A stretch of DNA of 64,000 nt, taken from Spongospora subterranea f. sp. subterranea. Its lineage: Eukaryota. Shown in pieces: positions 30,186 through 61,520 of the stretch (positions within the stretch are counted from its first letter, which is position 1; every line of letters starts with the position of its first letter). The notes beneath the pieces are model-generated. The model searched no databases. It had not been told where the DNA came from and saw nothing but the letters and a program-made list of their open reading frames with translations. Location: NCBI GenBank assembly GCA_049724395.1, contig JAUGWO010000060.1, positions 124,001-188,000 on the forward strand, read 5' to 3'. The translations under genes and the position numbers were made by a program.

Positions 30186-32589
30186 CAGGGTGTATTCGGG
30201 TGGTCGGCCAGTAACGATGTTCTATGGTGAAATCGTCACAAAAGCGCTGGTTCTAGTCTGAAAGATAAGCAGGACCCTGGCAGGGGGCTATGGGCTAACG
30301 CCAGAGACAGGTGGAATCAGACCGGGTAACAAAACCCCATGACCCGCTGGCCCTTGGCCGTTTGGCCGTTTATTGCACTGCGGCGGGATACCGGAAGGGA
30401 CGGTCTTATTTGCGGCAGACCCAGAGACCCAAGCCATCTTGCCGCAATCGTCTGAGATGATTACAGTACCAAAAATCATTTTCATCATTGCGTCTGAACC
30501 TTTTTCTCGCAGAATAACAAAATCAAAATTTCGCAATCTCAATGATCTACTTGATGAAAGCGCCGTCACAAGGTTTGCTTTGAGGCGTTTGTTCCTTGTG
30601 AACATTTTTCGGCCTCTGTATAGGTTTTCTTAAGGTTTATCGACTGACCTTACACCCAATTTTAACTTAGCAATGTTTAAGCATGTACGGTCTTCTCAAA
30701 CTCAATCCCCCATATATTACAGTGTTTTTACGGCCTGAGCAATTCTGGCGGTTCTGCTGTTAAATATTTCCTGTATTCCCGCGATAAGGTGGAATTTATA
30801 CATTCGGATAGAGGGAGTTTGAATTTAATCGTATTGTCATCCAAAATTAACCCGACTAGGATTAGTAATCAATTTCTTCTCTGTCCAATTTGGCATAGTG
30901 GTTTTCGCTCTAAACAGAAGCGCAATCGTTAATTGGAACTCGTCCATCCAAAATGCTCAAAATTAGGGGTAGCCAAAACAAACGGGGTCTCATTCAAACT
31001 AACACGATATAGCGAAGAGCTGAATTTTGCTGGTTGGCTATCACAAACTAATTTATGAATTCACAATTTCGGCATCAACGTTCGACTCAAATCCATAAAC
31101 AGTAATGTATTTTATGCTGTTAAAATTCTTTTGAGTATTATTGATCAATAAACCGTGCACAACGGGCATCCTTGAGGCTATGCAAATCACAATCTATTGA
31201 TTGTCAGGCGATAAATATAACATATGGCCACAGTACAGGATCACTCGAAAATGCCAAATCAAACGATATGCAGTTGGCGAGCGGGTTCCAAACGGGTACG
31301 GGTTTATCATGAGAATGTATTCGACGCTCTGTGAGATGTGAGATTTAGGCTAAACCCCGGTCATTTCTTACCATGTTCTGAGCTCTTACCGTTCGATAGA
31401 CAATGTTTGCGAGCTGTTCAAATAATCCTTGATACGAGACGCTCGCCGCTCATGAGCGTCAATGAGTAGAGTCAACGCTTCTTGAGTCTAAGAATGGCGA
31501 CACCAGCGATTAAGTCACGATATATCAAATTTGAGCAAATTTAAAAAACAATGAACTCTGTCCCATCACCACCTTACAGTTTTCTTGCGTTTTTAATAAT
31601 TCCCGATATTTTTCAATCGATCTCGCATATTTATCGAGCGCCTGTCGGTAATGACCTTTTTGTTCGGCCTCATTAGCCTGTCGACTGTACCTGTTCGCCT
31701 TGCCAGGGAATATCAGAATTGTGTGGGAGAAGCGCCAGCCCTTGGTTACCCTACCTCAGATAGCGGGTGGATATCGTCCCAATCATCAATCAGATACATA
31801 TTCGTGATTCCTCATGGACTAACCGTGTTCCCTCTTTTCCTTAATGATATAATCTTCATATTCGGTCCGACAATGATTGGTCGGATTTGCCTGCTGGTTC
31901 GGAGGGATCCCTCGGATTGGTCTGGGAGAATTCTTTCAATTACTGAAAGGTTTGTCAGCTTTGGTCGCTCAATCTCGATTTCTGCCTGTTGCGCGGCAAT
32001 CGTCTATGCGATTGTGACACCAGAACAGCCGTTTTTGTCGCTGTGGACGGCAATGTCCATAATATAGAGCAGATAATGGTGGGTTGATACTGTAAATTTG
32101 CCGCTGATAATTAAGGCAGTTGCGACGTTTGCTTCAACTGCAATTACACTTTAGTGGTCAAACATTCTTCCCATTATAAATGATTAACATCCAAATCATG
32201 TAGAAGGCGCCAGGTCATGTTGACCGACGGGAATGTTCAATCCCGATCCATTGCCTCCAACCCAGAAGACCTTGTGAGTGAGGCGAAACCGGAACATAAT
32301 CAAGTGAGAATTTTGCAGAAGGGTTTGATTAAAACTTTGAATGGGAAGGCTTGGTGAACACTTCCTCAACTGAAGCAAAATAGAAAAGATCTGAATAAAC
32401 AGAAGTAATGATCAGGTCGTCACTTTTCCTGCTCCCTTTCCTCTTTTCCTCATTTTTTCCTGGTTGCCTTCTGTTTTGCTTTTCTTTCCATTGGTATTGT
32501 GCCTTCTCTCAGTGCATCATGTCCCTGCCATCTCTCACCCCTGTTTCCGGTTCCCCGTTACCACCCAGCTGTACCCGTTCACATGCTCT

Positions 32590-33960
32590 GCTCGAAAGCA
32601 AAGTCATCCTCGTTACCACCCACCTGTGCTCAATCACTTCCTCGAAATCAAGTCATCCTCGTTACCACCCACCTGTGCTCAATCACTTCCTCGAAATCAA
32701 GTCATCCTCGTTACCACCCACCTGTGCTCAATCACTTCCTCGAAAGCAAGTCATCCTCGTTACCACCCACCTGTGCTCAATCACTTCCTCGAAAGCAAGT
32801 CATCCTGTTACCACCCACCTGTGCTCAATCACTTCCTCGAAATCAAGTCATCCTCGTTACCACCCACCTGTGCTCAATCATGCTTCCTCGAAATCTTCCT
32901 CGAAAGCAACTCATCCTCGTTACCACCCACCTGTGCTCAATCACTTCCTCGAAAGCAACTCATCCTCGTTACCACCCACCTGTGCTCAATCACTTCCTCG
33001 AAAGCAACTCATCCTGTTACCACCCACCTGTGCTCAATCACTTCCTCGAAATCAAGTCATCCTCGTTACCACCCACCTGTGCTCAATCACTTCCTCGAAA
33101 GCAAGTCATCCTCGTTACCACCCACCTGTGCTCAATCACTTCCTCGAAAGCAAGTCATCCTCGTTACCACCCACCTGTGCTCAATCACTTCCTCGAAAGC
33201 AAGTCATCCTGTTACCACCCACCTGTGCTCAATCACTTCCTCGAAATCAAGTCATCCTCGTTACCACCCACCTGTGCTCAATCACTTCCTCGAAAGCAAG
33301 TCATCCTCGTTACCACCCACCTGTGCTCAATCACTTCCTCGAAAGCAAGTCATCCTCGTTACCACCCACCTGTGCTCGATCACTTCCTCGAAAGCAAGTC
33401 ATCCTCGTTACCACCCACCTGTGCTCAATCACTGTGCTCAATCACTTCCTCGAAAGCAACTCATCCTCGTTACCACCCGCCTGTGCTCAATCACTTCCTC
33501 GAAATCAAGTCATCCTCGTTACCACCCACCTGTGCTCAATCACTTCCTCGAAAGCAAGTCATCCTCGTTACCACCCACCTGTGCTCAATCACTGTGCTCA
33601 ATCACTTCCTCGAAAGCAACTCATCCTCGTTACCACCCGCCTGTGCTCAATCACTTCCTCGAAATCAAGTCATCCTCGTTACCACCCACCTGTGCTCAAT
33701 CACTTCCTCGAAAGCAAGTCATCCTCGTTACCACCCACCTGTGCTCAATCACTTCCTCGAAAGCAAGTCCTCCTCGTTACCACCCACCTGTGGTCAATCA
33801 CTTCCTCGAAAGCAAGTCATCCTCGTTACCACCCACCTGTGCTCAATCACTTCCTCGAAAGCAAGTCCTCCTCGTTACCACCCACCTGTTCTCAATCACT
33901 TCCTCGAAAGCAAGTCATCCTCGTTACCACCCGCCTGTGCTCAATCACTTCCTTAAAGCA
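32590..33960 (+). repeat. Minisatellite, 49-bp unit, ~28 copies
   Basis: Unit CCTCGTTACCACCCACCTGTGCTCAATCACTTCCTCGAAAGCAAGTCAT, with substitution variants, 3-nt-deleted units and 13-nt internal duplications. Confidence 0.97.
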
Positions 33961-34332
33961 TTTCATCCGCGTTACCGTCAACTCTAATAAGATGCACCCT
34001 TACCCGTATCATACTCTGTTTGTTGAAAGGAGCACCACTCCTGTTAAATAACGCGACTCTATTATGCGCACCGGATTGTGTATTCTTTTTGCGGCCATTA
34101 TCAAATACTGCCCTGGTAGTCATTCATCAACCCTCCCGCCTCCTGTTGGATCCGCCGGTACATTCAACCCTAAACATTATTCGCTATTCTTTTCAAACCT
34201 CCCCAGGTTCCCTCGTTCCAGTTCCTAATTCTCCAACCCAGTCCATCTTGTCGAGGCAGATTGGTTCCCAAATTTAAACGATACCGCTATATGCGATTTT
34301 TGAATCTGGGGCCTGAATAAACTCTCATCTAA

Positions 34333-36780: not shown

Positions 36781-37225
36781 CGGCTCTGCTAGCTCTGCTG
36801 GTAGGGGGTAACCAGTTGCCTGCTGACCTTCCTTGATCTGTAAATAATCCAACAATTTTATTAGATCATTTTTGTTCGAACATGAAGAACAGCTCTTGAG
36901 CCTTTTCTACTCAAACGGCGACAGCACAACTTTTGAACATGAAAGTGGGAAACCCTATTGAAACCCTTACCCCACAGGCCACAGTGGAAGATTCTCCATT
37001 TTCCGCGGTCATCAATTATATGTTCTAGCCCCTGATAGGTTCCTACGGTCTCCGCCACGGTGTCCGAGAGCCGTAGTGGGAAGGCGCCGGTGTTGTTGTG
37101 ATCTGATCGCGGAAGCTGTTCATTCACCAATCGCCTTGCTCGTGGTTGAAGCAATGATTGCCAGCCGTGTACTAAGGTAAGCCCATTGATTTTCATTTCC
37201 AATTCAGTTGCCGGTGTTGTAAATT

Positions 37226-37325
37226 TGGGACTTGATGACCATCTTTCCCCGAACAAATTCTGCTTTGAGTACAAAATTACCGCAACTGCCGTCTTCAAGT
37301 CAATTGGCTTTTGCGACTGATCCCA
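37226..37325 (+). ncRNA. Box C/D snoRNA, SNORD12/snR190-like (copy 1)
   Basis: Terminal stem TGGGA/TCCCA, box C TGATGA 37233-37238, box D CTGA 37317-37320. TCTTTCCCCG (37242-37251) is complementary to LSU rRNA CGGGGAAAGA. The D' box is degenerate. Confidence 0.65.
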
Positions 37326-37493
37326 TATTTATTATACCGTTTTCTGATGTTTTATTTCGCAGCTATTCACTAACATTATACTGATCCTTATTTGATTAGG
37401 TTGTCGCAATCTCGCATCTTTTCGATAATGTCGTCGATACGCATCCCTCATCCAAGGTAATATTAATATGGTTATTTGTTTGTATATGTTTGT

Positions 37494-37588
37494 TCGATAT
37501 GATTACATCTTTCCCCGTGTGAATTCGATACCTGAACACATGAAATGCAAGTTTTGCAGCCAGCAGAACACTATTGCGCTATGATCGA
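37494..37588 (+). ncRNA. Box C/D snoRNA, SNORD12/snR190-like (copy 2)
   Basis: Stem TCGAT/ATCGA, box C variant ATGATTA 37499-37505, box D variant ATGA 37581-37584. Guide TCTTTCCCCG-T before D' GTGA (37519-37522) places the +5 position on the third G of LSU CGGGGAAAGA (yeast G2395 equivalent). Confidence 0.65.
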
Positions 37589-37744
37589 CTTATCTATATT
37601 TCATTTGATGTTTTGCTTTTTGACCTAGCGATTCATCGTCAAAGGCTGATCAATGAACAGGCGAAGATCTATACTCGGATGCCCATTCGTGGGGTAACTG
37701 TCGTATTCTATTATCAGGTATGTAGCTCATTGTAAAGCTCGATT

Positions 37745-37819
37745 TTAAGTGATGATTCATTCAGTTCTGCTTCTGAATTTTTTTGTAGAATACTTATATA
37801 CCAAAAATAGTCTGATTTC
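37745..37819 (+). ncRNA. Box C/D snoRNA, U38/snR61-like, double guide
   Basis: Box C GTGATGA 37749-37755. Guide CAGTTCTGCTT before D' CTGA 37773-37776 pairs LSU AAGCAGAACUG (yeast Am1133 equivalent). A second guide, TACCAAAAATAG, before box D 37812-37815 pairs the adjacent LSU AUUUUUGGUA. Confidence 0.85.
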
Positions 37820-37899
37820 AACTAAACATTTTGTTCTTCATGTTTTTTGTAAGCAATTAATTGACTGCTTATTTATAGGTAATCAAATACGATACTCTA

Positions 37900-37987
37900 A
37901 AATTATGATGAGTTTCGTCTCAGACGGGCGGTCGGAAGTCGGACTTTACAAATCCGACGTATTGTCGATTTTTTATAATCTGATTTA
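37900..37987 (+). ncRNA. Box C/D snoRNA, U43/snR70-like
   Basis: Box C ATGATGA 37905-37911. Guide GACGGGCGGT before D' variant CGGA pairs SSU ACCGCCCGUC (yeast Cm1639 equivalent). Internal hairpin GTCGGA/TCCGAC. Box D CTGA 37980-37983. Confidence 0.8.
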
Positions 37988-38109
37988 CTTTTTATCGTTT
38001 TACCCAACCATCAAAGTCCATTTGATTTATGGATTGTTTTGCAGGAGTCGGCTTGTGACTCAGAATTCTCTCGGAAACCCATTATGTAAGTTTTCTCAAC
38101 CAAACAATT

Positions 38110-38189
38110 TTGCAATGATGATTTTAATTTACAGACCTGTTCCGAGAGATATGTATGTGGACAATAGTGAATTCCTCGTTTCTGAGCAA
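38110..38189 (+). ncRNA. Box C/D snoRNA, double guide: U25/snR56-like plus snR57-like
   Basis: Stem TTGC/GCAA, box C ATGATGA 38115-38121. ACAGACCTGTT+CCGA pairs SSU AACAGGUCUGU (Gm1428 equivalent). GAATTCCTCGTT-T+CTGA (38182-38185) pairs SSU AACGAGGAAUUC (Gm1572 equivalent). Confidence 0.92.
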
Positions 38190-38293
38190 CAATTTTTTGT
38201 TTTACTCCAATGCTAATTGTGCAATTGCTGATCGGTTTTTTGTTTCTAGGTCTTGAGTATCCACCATCGTAAGATATTTTCATACATTTTCGT

Positions 38294-38372
38294 TGTCCGG
38301 TGATGTACATATTATATTTGCTACTCTTGAACTACCTTGATGACCAAAATATCACCAAGATCTCTGAGGACA
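38294..38372 (+). ncRNA. U24: Box C/D snoRNA U24
   Basis: Stem TGTCC/GGACA, U24-type box C TGATGT, C' TGATGA. Guide TATTTGCTACT+C+TTGA pairs LSU AGUAGCAAAUA (Am1449 equivalent). Guide CACCAAGATCT+CTGA pairs LSU AGAUCUUGGUG (Cm1437 equivalent). Confidence 0.95.
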
Positions 38373-38505
38373 TCTAACGTTGTTTAATTTGGGTTCATTT
38401 TTCAAGAAGTCTAAGACTTATTCTTTTTCGTGTCCAGTGTGCGGTCTCTCGTTGTAGCCTCTCCCTGTGTTTTCTTGGTAAGATACTTTTTTTATCTGCT
38501 TTTCT

Positions 38506-38605
38506 TTTCCTGATGAAAGCATGATCATTTTTCTATGATATAAGCATATTCTCATTTGTTTATTAGCCATGATTCAGCAATTCATGCTGCCTTCCTTCTG
38601 AACTT
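38506..38605 (+). ncRNA. Box C/D snoRNA, snR52-like (SSU Am420 equivalent)
   Basis: Box C TGATGA 38511-38516. The 13-nt guide TGCTGCCTTCCTT directly before box D CTGA 38598-38601 pairs SSU AAGGAAGGCAGCA. Confidence 0.88.
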
Positions 38606-38751
38606 TGCTTTTTTTTTGTAACCGCATTGGGTGTTGACAGTTTTCTAAACTTTATCTTTGTCCAGGCGCTGCGTCTTCTCTAAGGGATGTTCTCGATTTC
38701 ACCATCATCAGGTAATTATTCAGATACAGTAATTCAATGTTGGTGTTTCTT

Positions 38752-38827
38752 TTTTCTGATGAGATATGTCAAGTCCAATTCTAAATCACCATGTTGATTT
38801 GCAAATCGAGCTTTTTAAATCTGAGCC
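38752..38827 (+). ncRNA. Box C/D snoRNA, U36/snR47-like (SSU Am619 equivalent)
   Basis: Box C TGATGA 38757-38762. Guide CGAGCTTTTTAA before box D CTGA 38821-38824 pairs SSU UUAAAAAGCUCG. Confidence 0.88.
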
Positions 38828-39415
38828 TACTTTTTCCAGTTTTTGTTGTTTTACAGGGTATTGTTGCTGACGTCAATGTTCATTTAGGTGTGCTCTTGTC
38901 GTGTTGACCGTTCTCCTGCACCATCTTTAATACATTTTTCTGATCATTCTCCAGCAATCTCGCGACATCGTTTTGTATCGTAGATTGACGCTTTCATAGC
39001 AAGTCAGATTGTAGATTTGTTGACCGCCTTTAGGGAAGGAAGTGACGTCCTCGTACGATTGCGAGATAATGGCACTGAATGTAGGGCTGGACCCATTAAC
39101 CATAATTACGAGAACAAAACGATACACATTATGAAGGATTCACCATCATAGATGAACCAGACCGTCAACTGTAATTGCGACCGAATGCGGCAGAGTCGAT
39201 CCGTTCATCACAGATTCGCGCCGTAACGAACGAATACCAAAAAATCTGTGGGTTGCTCTGCCAAACCTAATCGGGCCAGATCGGCGCCGTTTAACGTTGC
39301 AGACTACGTAAACCCCGTTCAAGTGTGATTGCTGTGTAACAGGCCATCGTACCATCGTTACCCCTGTCGTTACCACCAACAACCGCGCAGTTGTCATAGC
39401 AGTGTCGCTATTCAC

Positions 39416-45019
<5,604 letters not shown>

Positions 45020-46176: not shown

Positions 46177-46501
46177 ATCTTCTGTGACGGCCGCGAACAG
46201 GCGACGCCTTTGGGCGCAGGACGGCCGTGCGGGAATGTCCCAAACCTGCGTAGCCTTCGACCACGCTGAGGAAACAACAATCAGATCCACGGTCGATTGT
46301 AGAATGACCTCACTGGCCTAGAGCAACATTCATGTCGAATTACGTTGCATTGATTCCTCCCACATGAACTTCAGGTCACGTGTCGACTGCATTGAGTGGG
46401 CATGCATTGCATTACATTGTTAGACACTCGTTTCGCTTATCCTTACAACATATACATAGGCATTGTAGTAATCATCGTTGCCGTCGATTCAAGAGCATCA
46501 T

Positions 46502-49500
46502 ATGGAGGGCAGCTTGGTTCAGGAATTCTTTGGTGAACAATACGGTACCCCACAACCAAAAAGGCCAAGAATTGACATTTCAGATCATCTCCAGCCAGCG
46601 CAGAAGTCATTGCGCTCTTTGAATGAATTAGAACTCAATCACAGATCAGTATTTTCTGGTTATAAGACGTTCAATCGTGTCCAGAGTATTGTATTTGAAG
46701 ATTTATATCACTCAGACAAAAGCATTGTCGTCGCAGCCCCGACCGCCTCTGGAAAAACCGTATTGTTTGAGCTTGCCATTTTGCGTTTATTTTCCTCCCA
46801 GCAGGACAGAAGTAGATTTAAGGCTGTGTACATTGCGCCATTAAAAGCATTATGCAATGAGAAACTACAATCTTGGCAATCACGTTTCGGCAACCTGGGA
46901 TTGAAATGCTGTGAATTCACTGGAGACTCCAACAACGACGTGAATCGCATTGCATCCAATCATATCATGTTGGTCATAAACTTAAATGATAGAATGGTAT
47001 TTAAGGCGGTTTCATCAGCATTACAACTCCAGAAAAACTGGATGCGTCCTCCCGTCGGTGGCAAGAGAACAAGTTCTTCTTTGACAATATCGGGCTTATG
47101 ATGATCGATGAAGTTCACACTGTAGGAGAACCTAGGGGTCGGGGTATCTGTCTAGAGGCGCTGATCACCAGGTTAATCACAGCAGTTTTGATAGCTTTCG
47201 CTAAAAGGGTATACGTTTTCCCAGGTGTCTTACCATGGGTATTCGAAAAAAGGAGCAAAACGATAATTGTCCAGCCTCAACTATGCGATTCGTTGCAGTT
47301 TCAGCAACCGTGCCAAACGCGGACGAACTTGGATCTTGGTTGCAGGCAAAACACTTTCAGTTTGGGGACAACTTTCGCCCAGTTCCCTTACAGTATCATG
47401 TTTTCGGTTATCCTATTCGCAAACAGCAGTCATATTATCCGTTTGATATGAGCCTAAATTACAAGGTATTTCACAATAAACTGGAATCACAGCTTATGAC
47501 GCCTTGACCAGGTTTTTGATATTATCCGACAATATTCTTCTGGCAGACCTGCTTTAGTATTTTGTTCAAGTAGAGCAGGCTGCTTGAAATGTGCAAAACA
47601 GGTTTTGGAAAGCGCAGCAAGTTCGGGATTCCGGTTTGTCAAAGATCATGAACATGAACAGTCTCTGAAAGTGCACAGCCAGCAACTCAAAGGTACACTG
47701 CTCTTCAAAACGCCCTGCACAAATTGAGGTGGGTACCCAACAGATGCGTCTCTTCGTGACATTTTCTGTCGTGGTGTAGCGATACATACGGCTGCCTTAT
47801 CTGCAGAAGATAGACAACTGATACTTGGCAATTTTGTTGCTGGGAGGATTTTGGTGCTCTGCGCAACAACTACATTAGCCCAGGGAGTTAACGTACCAAT
47901 CTTCATTATTGTTTTGTGATTTATGTTTTCGACATTCGACAATTTAGTTGCCGGCTGGTCTAGTGATCGTAAAGGGAACGCAAGTCTACAATAAAAGCCC
48001 TAGCGGCTTCACGGAGCATTCGTCAGCTACGATCTTGCAAATGTTCGTAAATTGATTCAAGATGTGCCGCATGATACTCTTTTACAGGATCGGGCGTGCG
48101 GGACGACCCCAGTTTGATGATTTCGGTGTTGCGATTGTTATGACAACAGCGAACATGGGGACGTTTTATGAAAATCTTTTGAAGGGTCAAAAGCCCATTG
48201 AGTCCCACTTGCTTGCTGGGAACGCGGCTGAGCATCTTAATGCCGAAATATCCATGCGTACTGAAACAATGTTCATCTTGGTGTCACCTTTGAAACTTGT
48301 TTACAGGAACAATCAATACTGTCCACGAAGCAGTGAATTGGATGCAAAACACGTTCGGGTCTGTTCGAATGAAAAAGTGCCCATCACAATTCGGGATTTC
48401 AGCTCGAGAAATTGAAGATCCTGCAGCTTATCAAACCGTCAGTGCAATCAAAGCTTAAGTATCGGAACTAACCCTTCCGGCAAGGTCCTGGAAAACCGAA
48501 TTCGACATTCTATTGCAACCCTAGAATCTGCTGGAATGGTTGAAAGTCAGCTACTGGATAGCAGAGTGATTCCCACACGATTAGGCGTCACCATGGTATA
48601 TGTAGACGAATGAGATAGCAAGTTCAGTTTCCATATCAAATTTCATAGGCCAAGTTTTACTTAAAAATCCCCACTGCAAGATTGATCGCTGACATTCCTC
48701 GAAACATAGACATGTGCGGTCTGATTAATATTATCGCGTCGTCCATTGAATTCGTTGATATGCCCATTCGTCAAGGGGAAAAAGCTCGTAAGTCTGTTTA
48801 GTGATACTGAGAAACAAATTTAACCGATTTTTTACATAGCCCTTAACGCCGCAAATAATAAAGAAACGATTAGGTTCGCATTCAAAGGAAAAGTTAAAAC
48901 TCTGGTAAACAATAGCACTCTAGTTGATGGTGCCTCAATGGTTGTCAAGGTGCATAAGATATCCATTCTGCTTTTGTGCGCTCTGCAATCTGCCTCGTCC
49001 TCCCCTTTTCAGTTGAATCTCTTAGATCAAGACCTGAAAAATGCACTAGACATTGCCAAAAGAATTACGGTGACTACTTACTTGCATCAGTTCTCGTTTT
49101 TCAACCAGGTTTAGAGGGCAGTTACCGAATATCATGGAGCGAGTGATAAGTCGTTTTCCGTTTACTTGAACAGCTTATTACTGTCAGTATTATTTGCTGA
49201 TGAATAATCTGACTTAAGATTTAACCATAGTCATAAAGCTTTTGAGAGGAGGATGTGGCATGACAGTCAATACTCTGTTAGGCAGATTGAGGGAATTGGG
49301 ATGAAAAAAGCCGCACAATTGATAGCTGCAGGGATTACAAGCATCGATAAGCTCAGAGAAATATCATCAGGGAAAATTGAAGCGGTTTGATGTTGTGGTA
49401 TTCAAATTTTACGGCTATGATACGCTATACACAGCTTTGCGATCGAAACCCACCGTTTGGCTTTCAAGTCAAACAGCGATTGTGTGGATTCCCAATGATC

Positions 49501-52699: not shown

Positions 52700-54830
52700 A
52701 AAATACGAAAACCTGGGACCCCACTATTGCTCAATTTTCTGGTCGACAGCAGACTTGGCTCCATTAAGACGTTTCAGCATGGGGACCAGACTGGTGTCGA
52801 TGATATTCTGTACGTTGCCTACGGTTTCGCCATTGCCAATGTCCACCACGTCCATGGGCACTGCAAGGACTCTGTGACGTGCACGCAATCCAATCGTTAC
52901 ACCGTGGTTCAGAGATTTTGGGCAATTCGCGATTACAGTACGGTAAAATTGCATAATAATGTCAAAGACTGTGGTATCGAATTATACTATATAGGCTGCC
53001 TTAATCAGTAAACCATGGAACAAATATCGTTTATGATTTTTTTTAGTCGAGTTGGTTCATTTTCATTGAACCGTCATGGACAGTCGATGACTCGGCGATG
53101 ACACGTGTATATCAAGGTCCTTGAAAAAAGCAATTGCTCGAACCGACATTCAAAGCACATCAACGTTCGTATCATTTCATCCAACCGAGAGCAAAATTTA
53201 GAAAAACGAATCGAGATCGGGCCATTTTACAAAAGCCCAATTCATGGGGCCTACAGAGGAAACATTCGTCTGTATGGGCACAAGCAACGGAGAGCGCCAA
53301 ACTCATGACTCGCCTCACTACCTTGTTACCTGACAATGGATCCGAGTATGTCAATAACCAGACAGCGCTTTCTTATCACAGACGAATATCAAACACCAAC
53401 TTGGCCATTTGTAGTCCAATACTCAACCTACAACGCTGAATCGACTACCGACGCGGCGCAACCCCTGTTGGATTATGGATGAACGACAAGCCTGACGTCG
53501 AACATTTGAGACCATTTGGATGTACTGCATATGCGCACATCGAATCCACAATGCGAGATTCAAAATCAATCCAATCCACCTGACTAAAATGCCAATTCTT
53601 AGGATACTCACTATATCAGAAACGCTGCACACTGTCACCGTCGAGCACCGCTGCGATCATCATAACACGAGACGTACAAGCGGCGATTGATATGTTTGAC
53701 GAATCAGATTCATTGACCATCGTGGACGACGTGATTCGAAATCCATCACACTCTCACCAACTTTCCGAAAACTTACGAGGTTGCCATGACGCGGCTGACG
53801 CTCATGAATGGCATGCAGCCGCAGATCAGGAAATGGCATTGCACAAAGAAACCATACTTGGGCACTCATATGTCTCGCAGTCAACAGCACCTGGAAGATA
53901 AACCAGAGAGATTTTAACCACAGCCTATTTGAACGCGCCACTACTGATCCCGATCTACGTTCAACAGACGTAAGGTTTTATCGAGCCCGGGATGCGAACA
54001 GGATGTGCATGCTTAACAAAGCCCTCTACGGCTTAAAACAGGCCGGTTGAGCTTGGCAGGCATCACTCTTCGACCTGATTCGCAACAACGGATTTTCTCA
54101 ATCCATGAAAGAACAGTGGGGATAACCATCTTCGGAACTGACGTCAATGATCTACTATTGACAGGAAAAGGACAAGGCTTAGTATTCGAAAAAAAATCCA
54201 GATTTAGATCTAACCTTCACACAGAGCGATCACCAACTTACAGGATGGGCGGACAGCGATTTGCTGGAGACAGAAGCGAACTAGTGGATGGATATTTTGC
54301 GTTAAACATAACGTCATGATTCATGGTGATAGAGCGCCAAATATCGTCGGCAATCGGCAATGGGCAGAGGATCCCGCGTGGTCGATGACGACTGTCGTGG
54401 AAAAGTATAAAGCAAATTGCCATGACTTTATCCACAACAGAAGCCGAATATTGCAGCTTCGGATGCGACAAAGGAAACCATATGGTTACAAGATCTTCTT
54501 TATGAATAACGGTCAAGTAACTCAAGGAGCAATTTTTGTTGAAACGAATACCTCCAACAAGTCACGAACCAAACACATAGACCTGAGACATCATTTCATT
54601 CGTGAGAAGACACAGGAAGGACGAATCAATTTTGAATATTGTCCAACCGAACTCATGATTGCAGACATTCTTCAAAACCACTCTCACATCCACTCTCCGT
54701 AAAACATCGCACTACGTTAATGGCCAAGAGATCAGTGACTATTCAGTGTCACGCTTCTAGTCACAGTGATACTGTTAGATCTTGTTACTTGTACAACGCC
54801 AATGTTACAATCACACTGTATTGTATGTGA
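52700..54830 (+). mobile_element. Degenerate, internally deleted Ty1/Copia LTR retrotransposon
   Basis: Integrase DNGSEY and KPDVEHLRPFGCTAYAHI; RT LNKALYGLKQAG; RNase H WADSDFAGD, EAEY and RTKHIDLRHHFIREK..CPTELMIADI. An LTR-like start TGTCACGCTTCTAGTCA lies at ~54747. Confidence 0.88.
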
Positions 54831-54839
54831 AATCATAAC

Positions 54840-57800
54840 AACGGGTGCACCGATTGATGTTCAATAGAAGAAGTGACTTGAATTATGGTATTCAGGTAAC
54901 GATATCTAAGTGTCATTGTACGCCATAGTCACTGTGGTAGTGCCGCTGTTGCACATCTCTTGTCCATTAACGTAGTGCGATGTTTTACGTAGAGTGGATG
55001 TGAGAGCGGTTTGGGGGTGAGGATATCTGCAATCATGAGCTCGGATGGACAGTATACAATATTGATCCGTCCTTCTTGTGTCTTCTCACGAATGAAATGA
55101 TGTCTTACGTCTATATGTTTGGTCCGCGACCTGTTAGAGGTAGTCTTCTCAAGGAAAATTGCACCTTGGTTATCTTGATACAAAGTCGCGTGTATTTTGG
55201 AAAGTATTGCAAGTTCATAAAGTAGATCTTGTAAGCATCTGGCTCCTTCGTCGCATCGGAAGCTGCAATATATTCGGCTTCTGTTGTGGATAAAGTAACT
55301 GTATTTTGTTTCTTTTTTTTTTCAAGAGATGACGTTATGTCCAATTGAAAATATCCATCCAGTAGTCGACTTACGATCGCTCTTGTCTCCAGCAAAATCG
55401 CTATCCGCCCATCCTGTACGTTGGTGATCTCTCTGTGTGAAGGTTAGACCTAAATCTGGGAGTTCCTTTTAAATACTTGTTATTCTTTGAATGGCTATCC
55501 ATAAAGATTTCGTGGGCTTGGTAACATGTCGGCTGATGTTGTTGATTGCGAATGCCAGGATCAGGGTCTCGTCGCATTTGCCAGGTAGGTAAGACTTCCA
55601 ATGCTTCACAAATCGGGTATGTGGTGATGCTAGCGTCGTCATCTGGCGGACCATTATGGGCCAAAACTTAAGATGAAAAACTTAGGTGAAATACAAAGAT
55701 TTCTCGGACTATGAGGCAAGATGAAAAACTGAGGACACAGATTTCTCGGATTACAAGCAAGATGATCGTCCTCACACACAAGGATTACACGCTCTTTATC
55801 ATATCCAAATTCGGACAGGAGAACTGCGAACACCAACCCCCATATCGGAAATCTAAACGCCAGATGACAACGCTAGCATCACCACATACCCGATTCGTGA
55901 AGCATTGGAAGTCTTACCTACCTGGCAAATGCGACGAGACCCTGATCCTGGAATTCGCAATCAACAACATCAGCCGACATGTCACCAAGCCCACGAAATC
56001 TTTATGACTAGCCATTCAAGGTTTTGAAGTATCTGGGCTCGTTCAGCTGAGATGTTCGACGAACTGCTGAGTGCGAGCACGTTCGGATTCTTTTATAAAC
56101 GAGAAGGATTTGAAGTTGAGCTTTCTGAGTCCAGGGGTGGCGGTTCAGGAGCTTGACTAATTGTTTGAGTTTCTCTTGTAATTCAGAAGGAAAAATGGAA
56201 TAACAAAAGGCACGAATGGTTTGACTGGTCTAGCTATTGGTTCTCGTTGATTAATCCTGACAGCCCTCGTATAGTGGAAGCAGGGTGAGAAGAATGTGGT
56301 GGAAGATGCTGGAATGTGCTAATTGGTTCAGCGTAAGATTTAAACGAGATGATGCCTTCAGTGGACTTCACATGATAGTGAGGTCCAAGAAGTCGACATG
56401 TTCTTTAGATATGTTCCAGGTGAGTTGAATTCATGGAATGAACTCATTCATTTCATTCAAACATTGCCAGAGATCAAAGGATGTTGTCAATCTCGGCCCG
56501 TTTCCTGTTAGTAACAGATCATCGACAAATGTTCCGATGATGGTTATCCCCTTGCCCTTCTTCTTATACCATATACACGGCTCTTTCATGGATTAAGTAA
56601 ATCCATTGTTGCGAATCAGATCGACTTTAATGATGTCTGCCAAGCTCTACCGGCCTGCTTTGAGCCGTAAAGGGCTTTGTTGAGCATGCACACCTTGTTC
56701 GCGTCCCCGGGCTTGATTCCAGCGGTCGGACGTAAATGGGATCAATAGTGGCGCGTTCAATGAGGCTGTGGAAAAGTCTCTCTGGTATATCTTGTGCTTC
56801 AAAAACTTGACCCATGTCCAGGTGGAGTATCTGTATCCTTCCTTGCTAAGAACCAGGAATGGTCCTTCAAGGTCTGAAAAAACGATTTCAAATGACCTAG
56901 TTGACTTTGTCCAACGTTCCTGTGCGAATGGTTGCTTCCGTGACTTTCCATGGGCACAGTTTTCGCAGAGCTGTCGTTCTTGCGGTGTGATTTTGACGCC
57001 TTCAGTGGGTTCTTGTAAATGCTTCAGTCTCTCGTCCGATGCGTGATCGAATCTTCGGTGCGCTAGCGCCATGCTAAGTCGTTGTGCTTGTGCGCCGTAA
57101 CGATAACCTTTCCATCTTGATTCTTGATACGAGTCGATGACTACGCTTAAACCTTGATCGGTAAACGATTTCGTAGCTAACAGGGACGAAAAATATATTG
57201 TGGATACAAATTGGTGGTTTGCATTGTATGGTCAGTGATCCTTGTCTGTATGCAGGTGATATCTCGCCGTTGCTGCAAGTGATCATGATCGGGTCCTGTA
57301 GTGACCTGTGGTTGTGAAGTAAGTTCAAATCATTCGACGTTCGCGCGACTATCGATGATATAGGCACTGTTGATGGAAACGTTCTGGTGGACGCACTGTG
57401 GAATCCTGTAAACTCCTGTTCCTTTTCGTCAGTCGTGGTCGTGTTGTTCAGTTCAGAGGACGGTTGTTCTTATATTGCGTCTTCAAGTGTGGGTGCAGTA
57501 GCCAGCATTCTTCGTTCGAATGCGTTTATCGACTGCAGCGTGTGCAGCACTTGCCGTTGTTGTATTTATTGCCTCTGTCTTTGTTGTTGTTATTTGACTT
57601 TTCCTTATGCCACTTGGTTCGCTCAATATTAAGAGATGTGTCATTTTCGAGGTCTTTTGTCAATAGTAAGTTCGTCAGTCTTGCAATAGAATTTATTTGA
57701 GATGCTCTGGCGGCTGCCTTGGTGGTTGGTATTGATCCGGCAAGCCATCAAGGGCCTTGACGCATAGGGCTAGTTCGCTAACGTCGATGTTGTGGACTCT

Positions 57801-58402
57801 CAGGTCATGGTATAGTTCTACCATTTTGCCTAGGTGTCCTTTCATAGTTTGATTCGGCTGCTTCTGGTGGTGGATGAATCGAAGAAATAAGTTCGCTGCC
57901 TTGGATTTTGCTGTTTGAACGTAAATCTCCTGGAGCGTTGTCCATAATTCATTTGTTGTCGTGCATCTGGAAACCTGTTTATATTGAGTTTGTGATAATC
58001 GCATGCTGGATTGAGCGGAGGCGAGTTGATCGTTGCGTTGTTCGATCGTGTTGCCGCGGGTTGGCGGGTAGGGTAAGAACGAGTCGATGTCCATTATTAC
58101 AAACTTTGTCTCGGTCGTGCGTCGGAATTCCTCCCAATTTCTTCCGGTGAATTCCGGGATCAGTTTTAGTCCCGAGTTGTGTTTCGAGATATTGGCCTCT
58201 TATCTTGATCGGTGCGTGTATGGTGTTTACATAGCTTCGTTGGGTGTGTCTGGAGTGGTGTCCTCCTCTTGAGTCTCTCTTTGTATTTGTATCATCTTGT
58301 GTAGAGCAAAACTGGGACTCTCAAGTTAATAACGGGTGCACCGATTGATGATCATTACAAGAAGTACGATATCTAAGTATCACTATGACTAGAAGCGTGT
58401 AG
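54840..58402 (-). mobile_element. Degenerate Ty1/Copia LTR retrotransposon with short LTR remnants at both ends
   Basis: gag (ELWTTLQEIY), a Zn knuckle, HRRFDH..CENCAHGK, VFSDLEGP, RT KALYG.KQAG and FVDDLL, RNase H STTEAEYIA and DNQGAI..RTKHID. The direct repeat AACGGGTGCACCGATTGATG occurs at 54840 and 58331. Confidence 0.92.
55487..56019. repeat. ~160-bp inverted duplication inside the Copia element
   Basis: 55487-55648 is a close reverse complement of 55858-56019, with a ~210-bp spacer. The same peptide appears on both strands in the ORF track. Confidence 0.9.
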
Positions 58403-61433: not shown

Positions 61434-61520
61434 GCCTCTTTAGCTCAGTTGGCAGTAGCGTAGGTCTCATATCCAAAAAGAGAAATCCTGAGGTCGCGCG
61501 TTCGATCCGCGCAGGGGGCA
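61434..61520 (+). tRNA. tRNA-Met(CAT), second copy, 13-nt intron
   Basis: Mature sequence identical to the 58425 copy, with one extra A in the intron. T8 terminator follows. Confidence 0.93.

Follow-up and report, generated by a model that had tools for sequence, protein, structure and literature searches.

Human box C/D snoRNAs favour a site that precedes the branch point by ∼50 nt; passages in PMC5519232, PMC8162545 and PMC10557570 propose Aquarius as the link. In Neurospora the distances from snoRNA to 3′ splice site resemble those of Drosophila (excerpts of PMC2780460), and a positional rule outside mammals is already published, in flies and in fungi. Aquarius is entered as a LECA orthogroup in table S1 of PMC9887622, whose main text does not name it; the relevant part of PMC10557570 lists no budding-yeast ortholog, and a section of PMC8682746 describes a trypanosome complex from which Aquarius is missing. 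Footprint sizes are given in parts of a preprint (bioRxiv 10.1101/226894): the S. pombe spliceosome protects ∼31 nt past the donor and ∼25 nt around the branch point, with a third footprint upstream of the branch point attributed to Cwf11/Aquarius, and in the human C complex protection reaches as far as 44 nt upstream of the branch point, the Aquarius contact zone lying at −33 to −40. The intronic locations of old snoRNAs are mobile and not ancestral (portions of PMC3511168), so that a shared spacing would reflect a shared constraint rather than inherited introns. Hosts of snoRNAs with zero-length exons are described, in parts of PMC5033589, PMC3596301 and 10.1101/226894, for Candida, Debaryomyces, Yarrowia, filamentous ascomycetes and S. 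pombe. Protist snoRNA annotation is sparse, according to passages of PMC11028025, and our literature search, mostly of open papers, found no report of such spacing or tandem introns from Rhizaria or other protists.

The host gene and its snoRNAs

The locus described here comes from Spongospora subterranea, a phytomyxean (Rhizaria) and potato-parasitic protist. The window, that is, the whole 64,000-nucleotide (64-kb) stretch of DNA analysed, contains one host gene carrying eight box C/D units, all of them intronic, in an arrangement of the UHG/GAS5 type that is also like that of fungal clusters (Table 1). RNA contigs came from 7 of 14 listed runs (X1, X4, X5, X6, X7, X11 and X14); the joint tables of X5 and X11 are identical and were counted once, and X4 reaches the 3′ end only. 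These are long-RNA-type runs, and contig assembly drops rare forms. The runs contain spliced RNA, since their joints sit on GT..AG ends. The snoRNA host gene is non-coding: the spliced RNA measures 372 nt over the covered span and its longest ATG frame has 38 codons, which rules out a coding host.

Table 1. Positions of the host transcript, snoRNA units, introns and related features in the window
Feature	Positions	Strand	Description or evidence	Box D to 3′ splice site (nt)
Host transcript, non-coding snoRNA host (covered span)	37134..38956	+	contig pieces, depth	
Unit 1, C/D	37232..37320	+	flanked by an inverted repeat; box C variant, box D at 37317-37320	
Unit 2, C/D	37499..37584	+	variant boxes, D = ATGA chosen by eye; terminal stem in fold	
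Unit 3, snR61/U38	37749..37815	+	11-nt LSU guide before D′	
Unit 4, C/D	37905..37983	+	10-nt SSU guide (L138 SSU position 1641)	
Unit 5, double-guide	38115..38185	+	snR56-type guide, 11 nt, before D′; 12-nt SSU guide before D	
Unit 6, U24/SNORD24	38300..38367	+	two LSU guides, 12 and 11 nt	
Unit 7, snR52/U83-type	38510..38601	+	13-nt SSU guide before D; weak Rfam U83/snR52 matches	
Unit 8, U36/snR47-type	38756..38824	+	12-nt SSU guide 2 nt before D	
Intron 1, 223 nt	37177..37399	+	joint in X5, X6, X7	79
Intron 2, 204 nt	37457..37660	+	joint in X5, X6, X7, X14	76
Intron 3, 161 nt	37718..37878	+	joint in X1, X5, X7	63
Intron 4, 166 nt if donor is 37879	37879..38044	+	donor inferred, acceptor confirmed	61
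Intron 5, 164 nt	38086..38249	+	joint in X6, X7	64
Intron 6, 169 nt	38269..38437	+	X14, letters-between row	70
Intron 7, 188 nt	38478..38665	+	joint in X5, X7, X14	64
Intron 8, 176 nt	38712..38887	+	joint in X5, X7, X14	63
Zero-length exon	37878..37879	+	snR61 acceptor AG, then donor-like GTAATC at once	
Microexon, 19 nt	38250-38268	+	in X14, skipped in X1	
Spacing spans, units 1-8	37320-37399, 37584-37660, 37815-37878, 37983-38044, 38185-38249, 38367-38437, 38601-38665, 38824-38887			
Helicase-like frame	46472-47098		96% identity to Spongospora subterranea helicase	

The reference for guide complements was a eukaryotic rDNA locus (L138; SSU, 5.8S and LSU by Rfam), which is heterologous and not Spongospora rRNA. 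It was found through the guides of units 7 and 8, whose presence in it is therefore by construction, their position inside the SSU not. Earlier rRNA fragments (L116-L119) span only parts of the rRNA, and four further candidates (L120-L123), when tested, proved not to be rRNA and were dropped. All 40 matches to a eukaryotic 18S pattern (L124-L163) sit in prokaryote genome records; this eukaryotic rDNA is likely contamination, judging by the 2 of 40 records checked.

With D′ boxes picked by eye, 8 of the 13 D or D′ boxes tested are preceded, at a distance of 0-2 nt, by an exact rRNA complement 10-13 nt long; the same type of complement was present at 4 of 267 other CTGA sites of the 64-kb window, which served as control. 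All six core units (units 3-8) have rRNA guides of 10-13 nt, and their boxes C and D are canonical or one-base variants; by these boxes and complements we class them as box C/D guide snoRNAs. Rfam models place snR61 (RF00476) at 37744-37818 with 59.3 bits (gathering 45) and U24 (RF00069) at 38295-38371 with 56.3 bits (gathering 41). The snR56 match of unit 5 (41.1 bits) falls under its gathering threshold of 54, the SNORD36 match of unit 8 is weak (E 0.29), and Rfam returned no C/D match for unit 4, which we take to be of the snR70/U43 type. The second SSU guide of unit 5, before box D, is presumably of the snR57 type; this one RNA (38115-38185) unites two SSU guides that in yeast are split between snR56 and snR57. 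Box C of unit 7 begins at 38510 or 38521, the terminal stem favouring 38521.

The boxes of units 1 and 2 are variants. Unit 1 has a weak Rfam match to snoZ122 (E 3.8), and the search for rRNA complements found no guide adjoining its box D. Unit 2, which has no Rfam match and which we assume to be snR190/SNORD12-like, carries a guide at 37508-37518 ahead of a D′-like GTGA, with an LSU complement of 10 WC pairs and 1 GU; its exact rRNA match is 9 nt (SSU). A 12-nt element following box C is common to unit 1 (37240-37251) and unit 2 (37506-37517) and complements two LSU sites, and in unit 2 also an SSU site. Units 1 and 2 may possibly be paralogous chaperone-type snoRNAs.

Downstream of the cluster lies a gene whose match to an ABC membrane domain is weak (E 0.003); a 96-nt GC-AG intron (39647-39742) in this ABC-transporter-like gene gives a joint in X1, X4, X5 and X11. 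Elsewhere in the window we noted a repetitive stretch with strong GC skew and three open frames on the plus strand (32395-34051), retrotransposon-like fragments with gag-, integrase- and RNase H-like frames recognised by eye (54214-58199), and a tRNA gene whose anticodon loop carries an insertion (61434-61520).

Splice sites and snoRNA placement

The original prediction proposed the acceptors from sequence, and the spliced contigs bear out all eight: 37399, 37660, 37878, 38044, 38249, 38437, 38665 and 38887. For the last intron, where 38856 had been named as a possible substitute, X5, X7 and X14 join at 38887 and 38856 is among no listed joints. The second unit had been given a spacing of 44 or 76 nt; acceptor 37660 settles it at 76, and 37628, which would give 44, is likewise among no listed joints. 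The further candidates 37362, 38640 and 38839 are also absent from the listed joints, and any of these five acceptors may be used rarely.

Several products show more than simple removal of one intron. Intron 3 is excised alone in a splicing intermediate, and acceptor 38044 is joined to donor 37718 in X5, X6, X7 and X14. For acceptor 38249 there are further traces in X5 (loose ends) and X14 (letters between). Acceptor 38437 is reached from donor 38086 in X1 and by way of the 19-nt exon in X14, and intron 6 is kept in the X5 and X7 contigs. The skipping of this exon in X1 means that two snoRNAs exit in one 352-nt intron. On the minus strand, a 50-nt GT..AG intron (38781-38830) is removed in the X1 and X4 contigs, which come from one study. 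As this intron takes in both box D and the guide of unit 8, it suggests a spliced antisense transcript; a deletion in the sample DNA is the alternative.

From the end of box D to the end of the intron, units 1-8 measure 79, 76, 63, 61, 64, 70, 64 and 63 nt. The near-constancy claimed at the outset for the last six was recounted identically and now stands on RNA-confirmed acceptors. As a null, each snoRNA was placed uniformly in its own intron, under two minimum-flank settings. The probability of an SD as small as that observed is 0.0001-0.0006 for the six and 0.0003-0.003 for all eight, and that of all eight spacings being at least 61 nt is 0.0003-0.001. A narrow, non-random placement of the snoRNAs is confirmed, for eight introns of one gene.

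The 5′ flanks of units 1-8 are 55, 42, 31, 26, 29, 31, 32 (43 with box C of unit 7 at 38521) and 44 nt; in five units they are tight, at 26-32 nt. In introns 1 and 2 both flanks are longer together (r = 0.96 and 0.91 with total flank). For comparison, we collected 24 ordinary introns, 15 through protein alignment (823 of 1123 residues covered) and 9 through RNA joints. Their median length is 50.5 nt, with 23 of the 24 at 45-59 nt, whereas the two flanks of each snoRNA sum to 87-134 nt; even by itself, the 3′ flank is longer than an entire ordinary intron. A branch-like motif, assigned by motif only, lies 42-49 nt past box D in the six core units, near 37860-37864, 38025, 38231, 38414, 38648 and 38870, and 53-65 nt past it in the first two; the YTRAY motif is weak in this species, being found in 10 of the 24 ordinary introns. 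The U24 unit is an outlier at 70 nt to the acceptor but is absorbed when measured to its branch motif, which sits at 47 nt, within the 42-49 nt range. Five YAGs, 15-44 nt past box D in four of the eight introns, are absent from the listed joints; this is a weak sign, as the acceptor score for skipped YAGs is low-powered (leave-one-out median −0.25) and an internal YAG is also skipped in 4 of the 24 ordinary introns. Terminal-stem strength was discarded as the reason why units 1 and 2 are spaced more widely: units 5, 6 and 7 have stems too, and no fold beats its shuffles.

A metagenome scan gave at least 115 loci; those listed hold 106 distinct snR61-like cores, of which 102 remained after four with short flanks were dropped. 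These loci are known from sequence, with no RNA check, and related species among them are not independent. In the 102 listed sequences, CTRAY motifs number 39 at 50-59 nt past box D, against 4.6 in shuffles, and 0 at 0-19 nt, against 7.8. For the 46 of 102 with donor, branch and acceptor motifs, the median distance from box D to the branch is 55 nt (MAD 3); that from box D to the AG, at 69.5 nt (MAD 5.5), is looser. Many of the listed loci look fungal, with snR55 neighbours in 4 of 20 scanned.

Among the 115 loci listed there is no phytomyxean ortholog of the cluster, and outside snR61 only U24 (five loci) and one further guide matched. A U24 guide lies 426-1041 nt downstream of snR61 in 5 of the 106 listed cores (L029, L036, L046, L049 and L050), and an snR70-type guide 193-277 nt downstream in four (L050, L086, L088 and L091); the order, from snR61 to the snR70-type or U24 guide, is that of the window. 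One of these loci, L049, is eukaryotic. Its six units run from snR61 to U24, and the spacings predicted for them are 41, 46, 40, 36, 39 and 41 nt; the units were picked by eye and the splice sites are predictions with no RNA check. L049 also has one possible, predicted zero-length exon. In 2 of the 46 loci with all three motifs (L025 and L039) a donor-like GT directly adjoins the AG of the snR61 intron, and in 3 of the 46 (L003, L056 and L095) a possible 1-nt exon comes after this AG.

Explanations for the spacing

We consider it probable that the spacing is a steric minimum that keeps the snoRNP off the spliceosome footprint and is tightened by compaction. Each assembling snoRNP would be kept clear of the footprint upstream of the branch point, genome compaction would likely press the flanks down to the minimum distance, and each snoRNA would then be freed from its lariat by debranching and trimming, as established biology suggests. 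The flank sizes found here agree on both sides with the footprint sizes of the S. pombe and human spliceosomes, and the joint lengthening of both flanks in introns 1 and 2 is what a floor would allow. The case is weakened by its base in eight introns of one gene and by branch points taken from a motif that is weak in the species; moreover, steric exclusion and active Aquarius-driven assembly are not separable by sequence. The latter process would be an active ruler, in which the helicase (Aquarius/IBP160), sitting upstream of the branch point, loads snoRNP proteins at the right distance only, as an ancestral coupling. It finds some agreement in the likely distance of 42-49 nt from box D to the branch, near the human optimum of ∼50 nt, in the sharp peak at 50-59 nt among the listed snR61 metagenome loci, in the status of Aquarius as a LECA orthogroup, and in the Cwf11-attributed footprint of S. 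pombe. Nonetheless we regard it as doubtful. Units 1 and 2 are off by 12-18 nt, and the 5′ flank shows almost the same tightness, which Aquarius leaves unexplained. The predicted branch motifs of L049, at 27-38 nt, fall within the zone that Aquarius contacts in humans (−33 to −40). Budding yeast, too, is listed without Aquarius, yet the title of Vincenti 2007 reportedly states a positional requirement there. We searched the PDB with the MER3-like protein of the window and saw no Aquarius chain among the best 60 of 91 matches listed. On balance we infer that the steric minimum is to be preferred to the active ruler. The two overlap, and Aquarius would possibly form the far edge of the footprint.

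It is very improbable, in our judgement, that no snoRNA-specific constraint acts and that the pattern stems from short introns, from the shared ancestry of duplicated intron cassettes or from chance. The six introns are indeed similar in length (161-188 nt) in a compact genome, and 4 of 28 flank pairs stand at z 2.2-3.0 against shuffles. Set against this, the uniform-placement nulls are rejected, and compaction alone fails to explain the flanks because, at 87-134 nt, they far exceed what it would leave where ordinary introns are ∼50 nt. The mean flank similarity is z 0.52, all flanks have in common a branch and pyrimidine layout which shuffling destroys, and the snoRNAs come from different families. 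A single universal spacing length is also disfavoured, because the predicted spacings of L049 are only 36-46 nt. The original prediction had raised the same molecular ruler for this distant lineage: a mammalian-like positional rule does hold, but the spacing acts more like a minimum than a rigid ruler.

Adjoining introns at 37878/37879 and comparison with known systems

Introns 3 and 4 touch. The joint 37717-37879, with the next intron retained, occurs in X1 and in X5 and X7 (two studies), and the joint 37717-38045, with no exon between, in X5, X6, X7 and X14, as the exon-less product of a 327-nt intron. Position 37879 is the sole GT ahead of the next box C and lies 26 nt before it. Ordinary acceptors are followed by GTA in 0 of 24 cases and by GT in 6 of 24. 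Splicing here is likely to be recursive, because the contigs show both the fully spliced RNA and an intermediate that has lost one intron. The first splice would rebuild a donor for the second intron, so that the touching introns would leave one after the other, and stepwise removal would give each snoRNA its own lariat. A choice of donor 37718 between two acceptors would instead yield either a dead-end RNA retaining the second snoRNA or a 327-nt two-snoRNA lariat cut by a nuclease. Both joints fit this equally, the same alternative is named for fungal clusters in part of Luo 2013 (PMC3596301), and since a one-step removal of two snoRNAs is seen in the same host (38085-38438 in X1) the 327-nt joint need not be recursive. 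What makes such a choice rather unlikely is that the rebuilt donor, CAG/GTAATC, is one base off the confirmed donor of intron 8, that its distance to box C is like that of other donors (29-32 nt), and that snR61 still has an acceptor to itself, at the usual 63 nt.

Taken together with recursive splicing, the spacing permits a wider but tentative reading, of which we are less than convinced: a gauge of the spliceosome footprint that is common to eukaryotes but has a set-point specific to each lineage, and zero-length-exon recursion outside fungi and animals near snR61/snR70. For the fungal-like snR61 set the set-point would be ∼70 nt, for Rhizaria 63 nt and for L049, by prediction, about 40 nt. 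If such a gauge exists, the introns that hold snoRNAs report how far a lineage's spliceosome reaches, and also whether Aquarius is present; and if the set-point varies by lineage, comparison with the presence or loss of Aquarius could separate a steric from a helicase-driven rule.

The RNA-supported acceptors carry the snoRNA positioning rule of animals and fungi over to Rhizaria; the same is likely of tandem snoRNA introns with no exon between them, also known in animals and fungi. With position-dependent processing in mammals (Hirose and Steitz 2001; Hirose 2006; as related in parts of PMC5519232, PMC8162545 and PMC10557570) the locus shares one snoRNA per intron and a snoRNA 3′ end that precedes the acceptor by 60-80 nt and, judged by motif, the likely branch point by ∼45-50 nt. 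It differs in belonging to a rhizarian with 50-nt ordinary introns and in its tight 5′ flank, and it is known from sequence and RNA contigs. The fungal clusters snR57-55-61 and snR41-70-51, as described in sections of PMC2780460, PMC5033589 and PMC3596301, also have a non-coding host, tiny exons and exon skipping, distances to the 3′ splice site described as like those of Drosophila, and zero-length exons with the stepwise splicing that is likely here; the zero-length exon of D. hansenii lies just upstream of snR70 and the one here between snR61 and the snR70-type unit. The order of the units, snR61, snR70-type, snR56/57-type, U24, snR52-type and U36-type, and the non-fungal organism set the present cluster apart. 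The nearest parallel to the adjoining introns is S. pombe SPNCRNA.445 (snoRNA61; parts of 10.1101/226894), which likewise has a two-part intron with an internal AG/GT, of 336 nt as against 327 nt here. Its intron ends were mapped in purified spliceosomes, whereas those of the Spongospora locus are seen as exon joints only, and the likeness does not imply homology of the two junctions.
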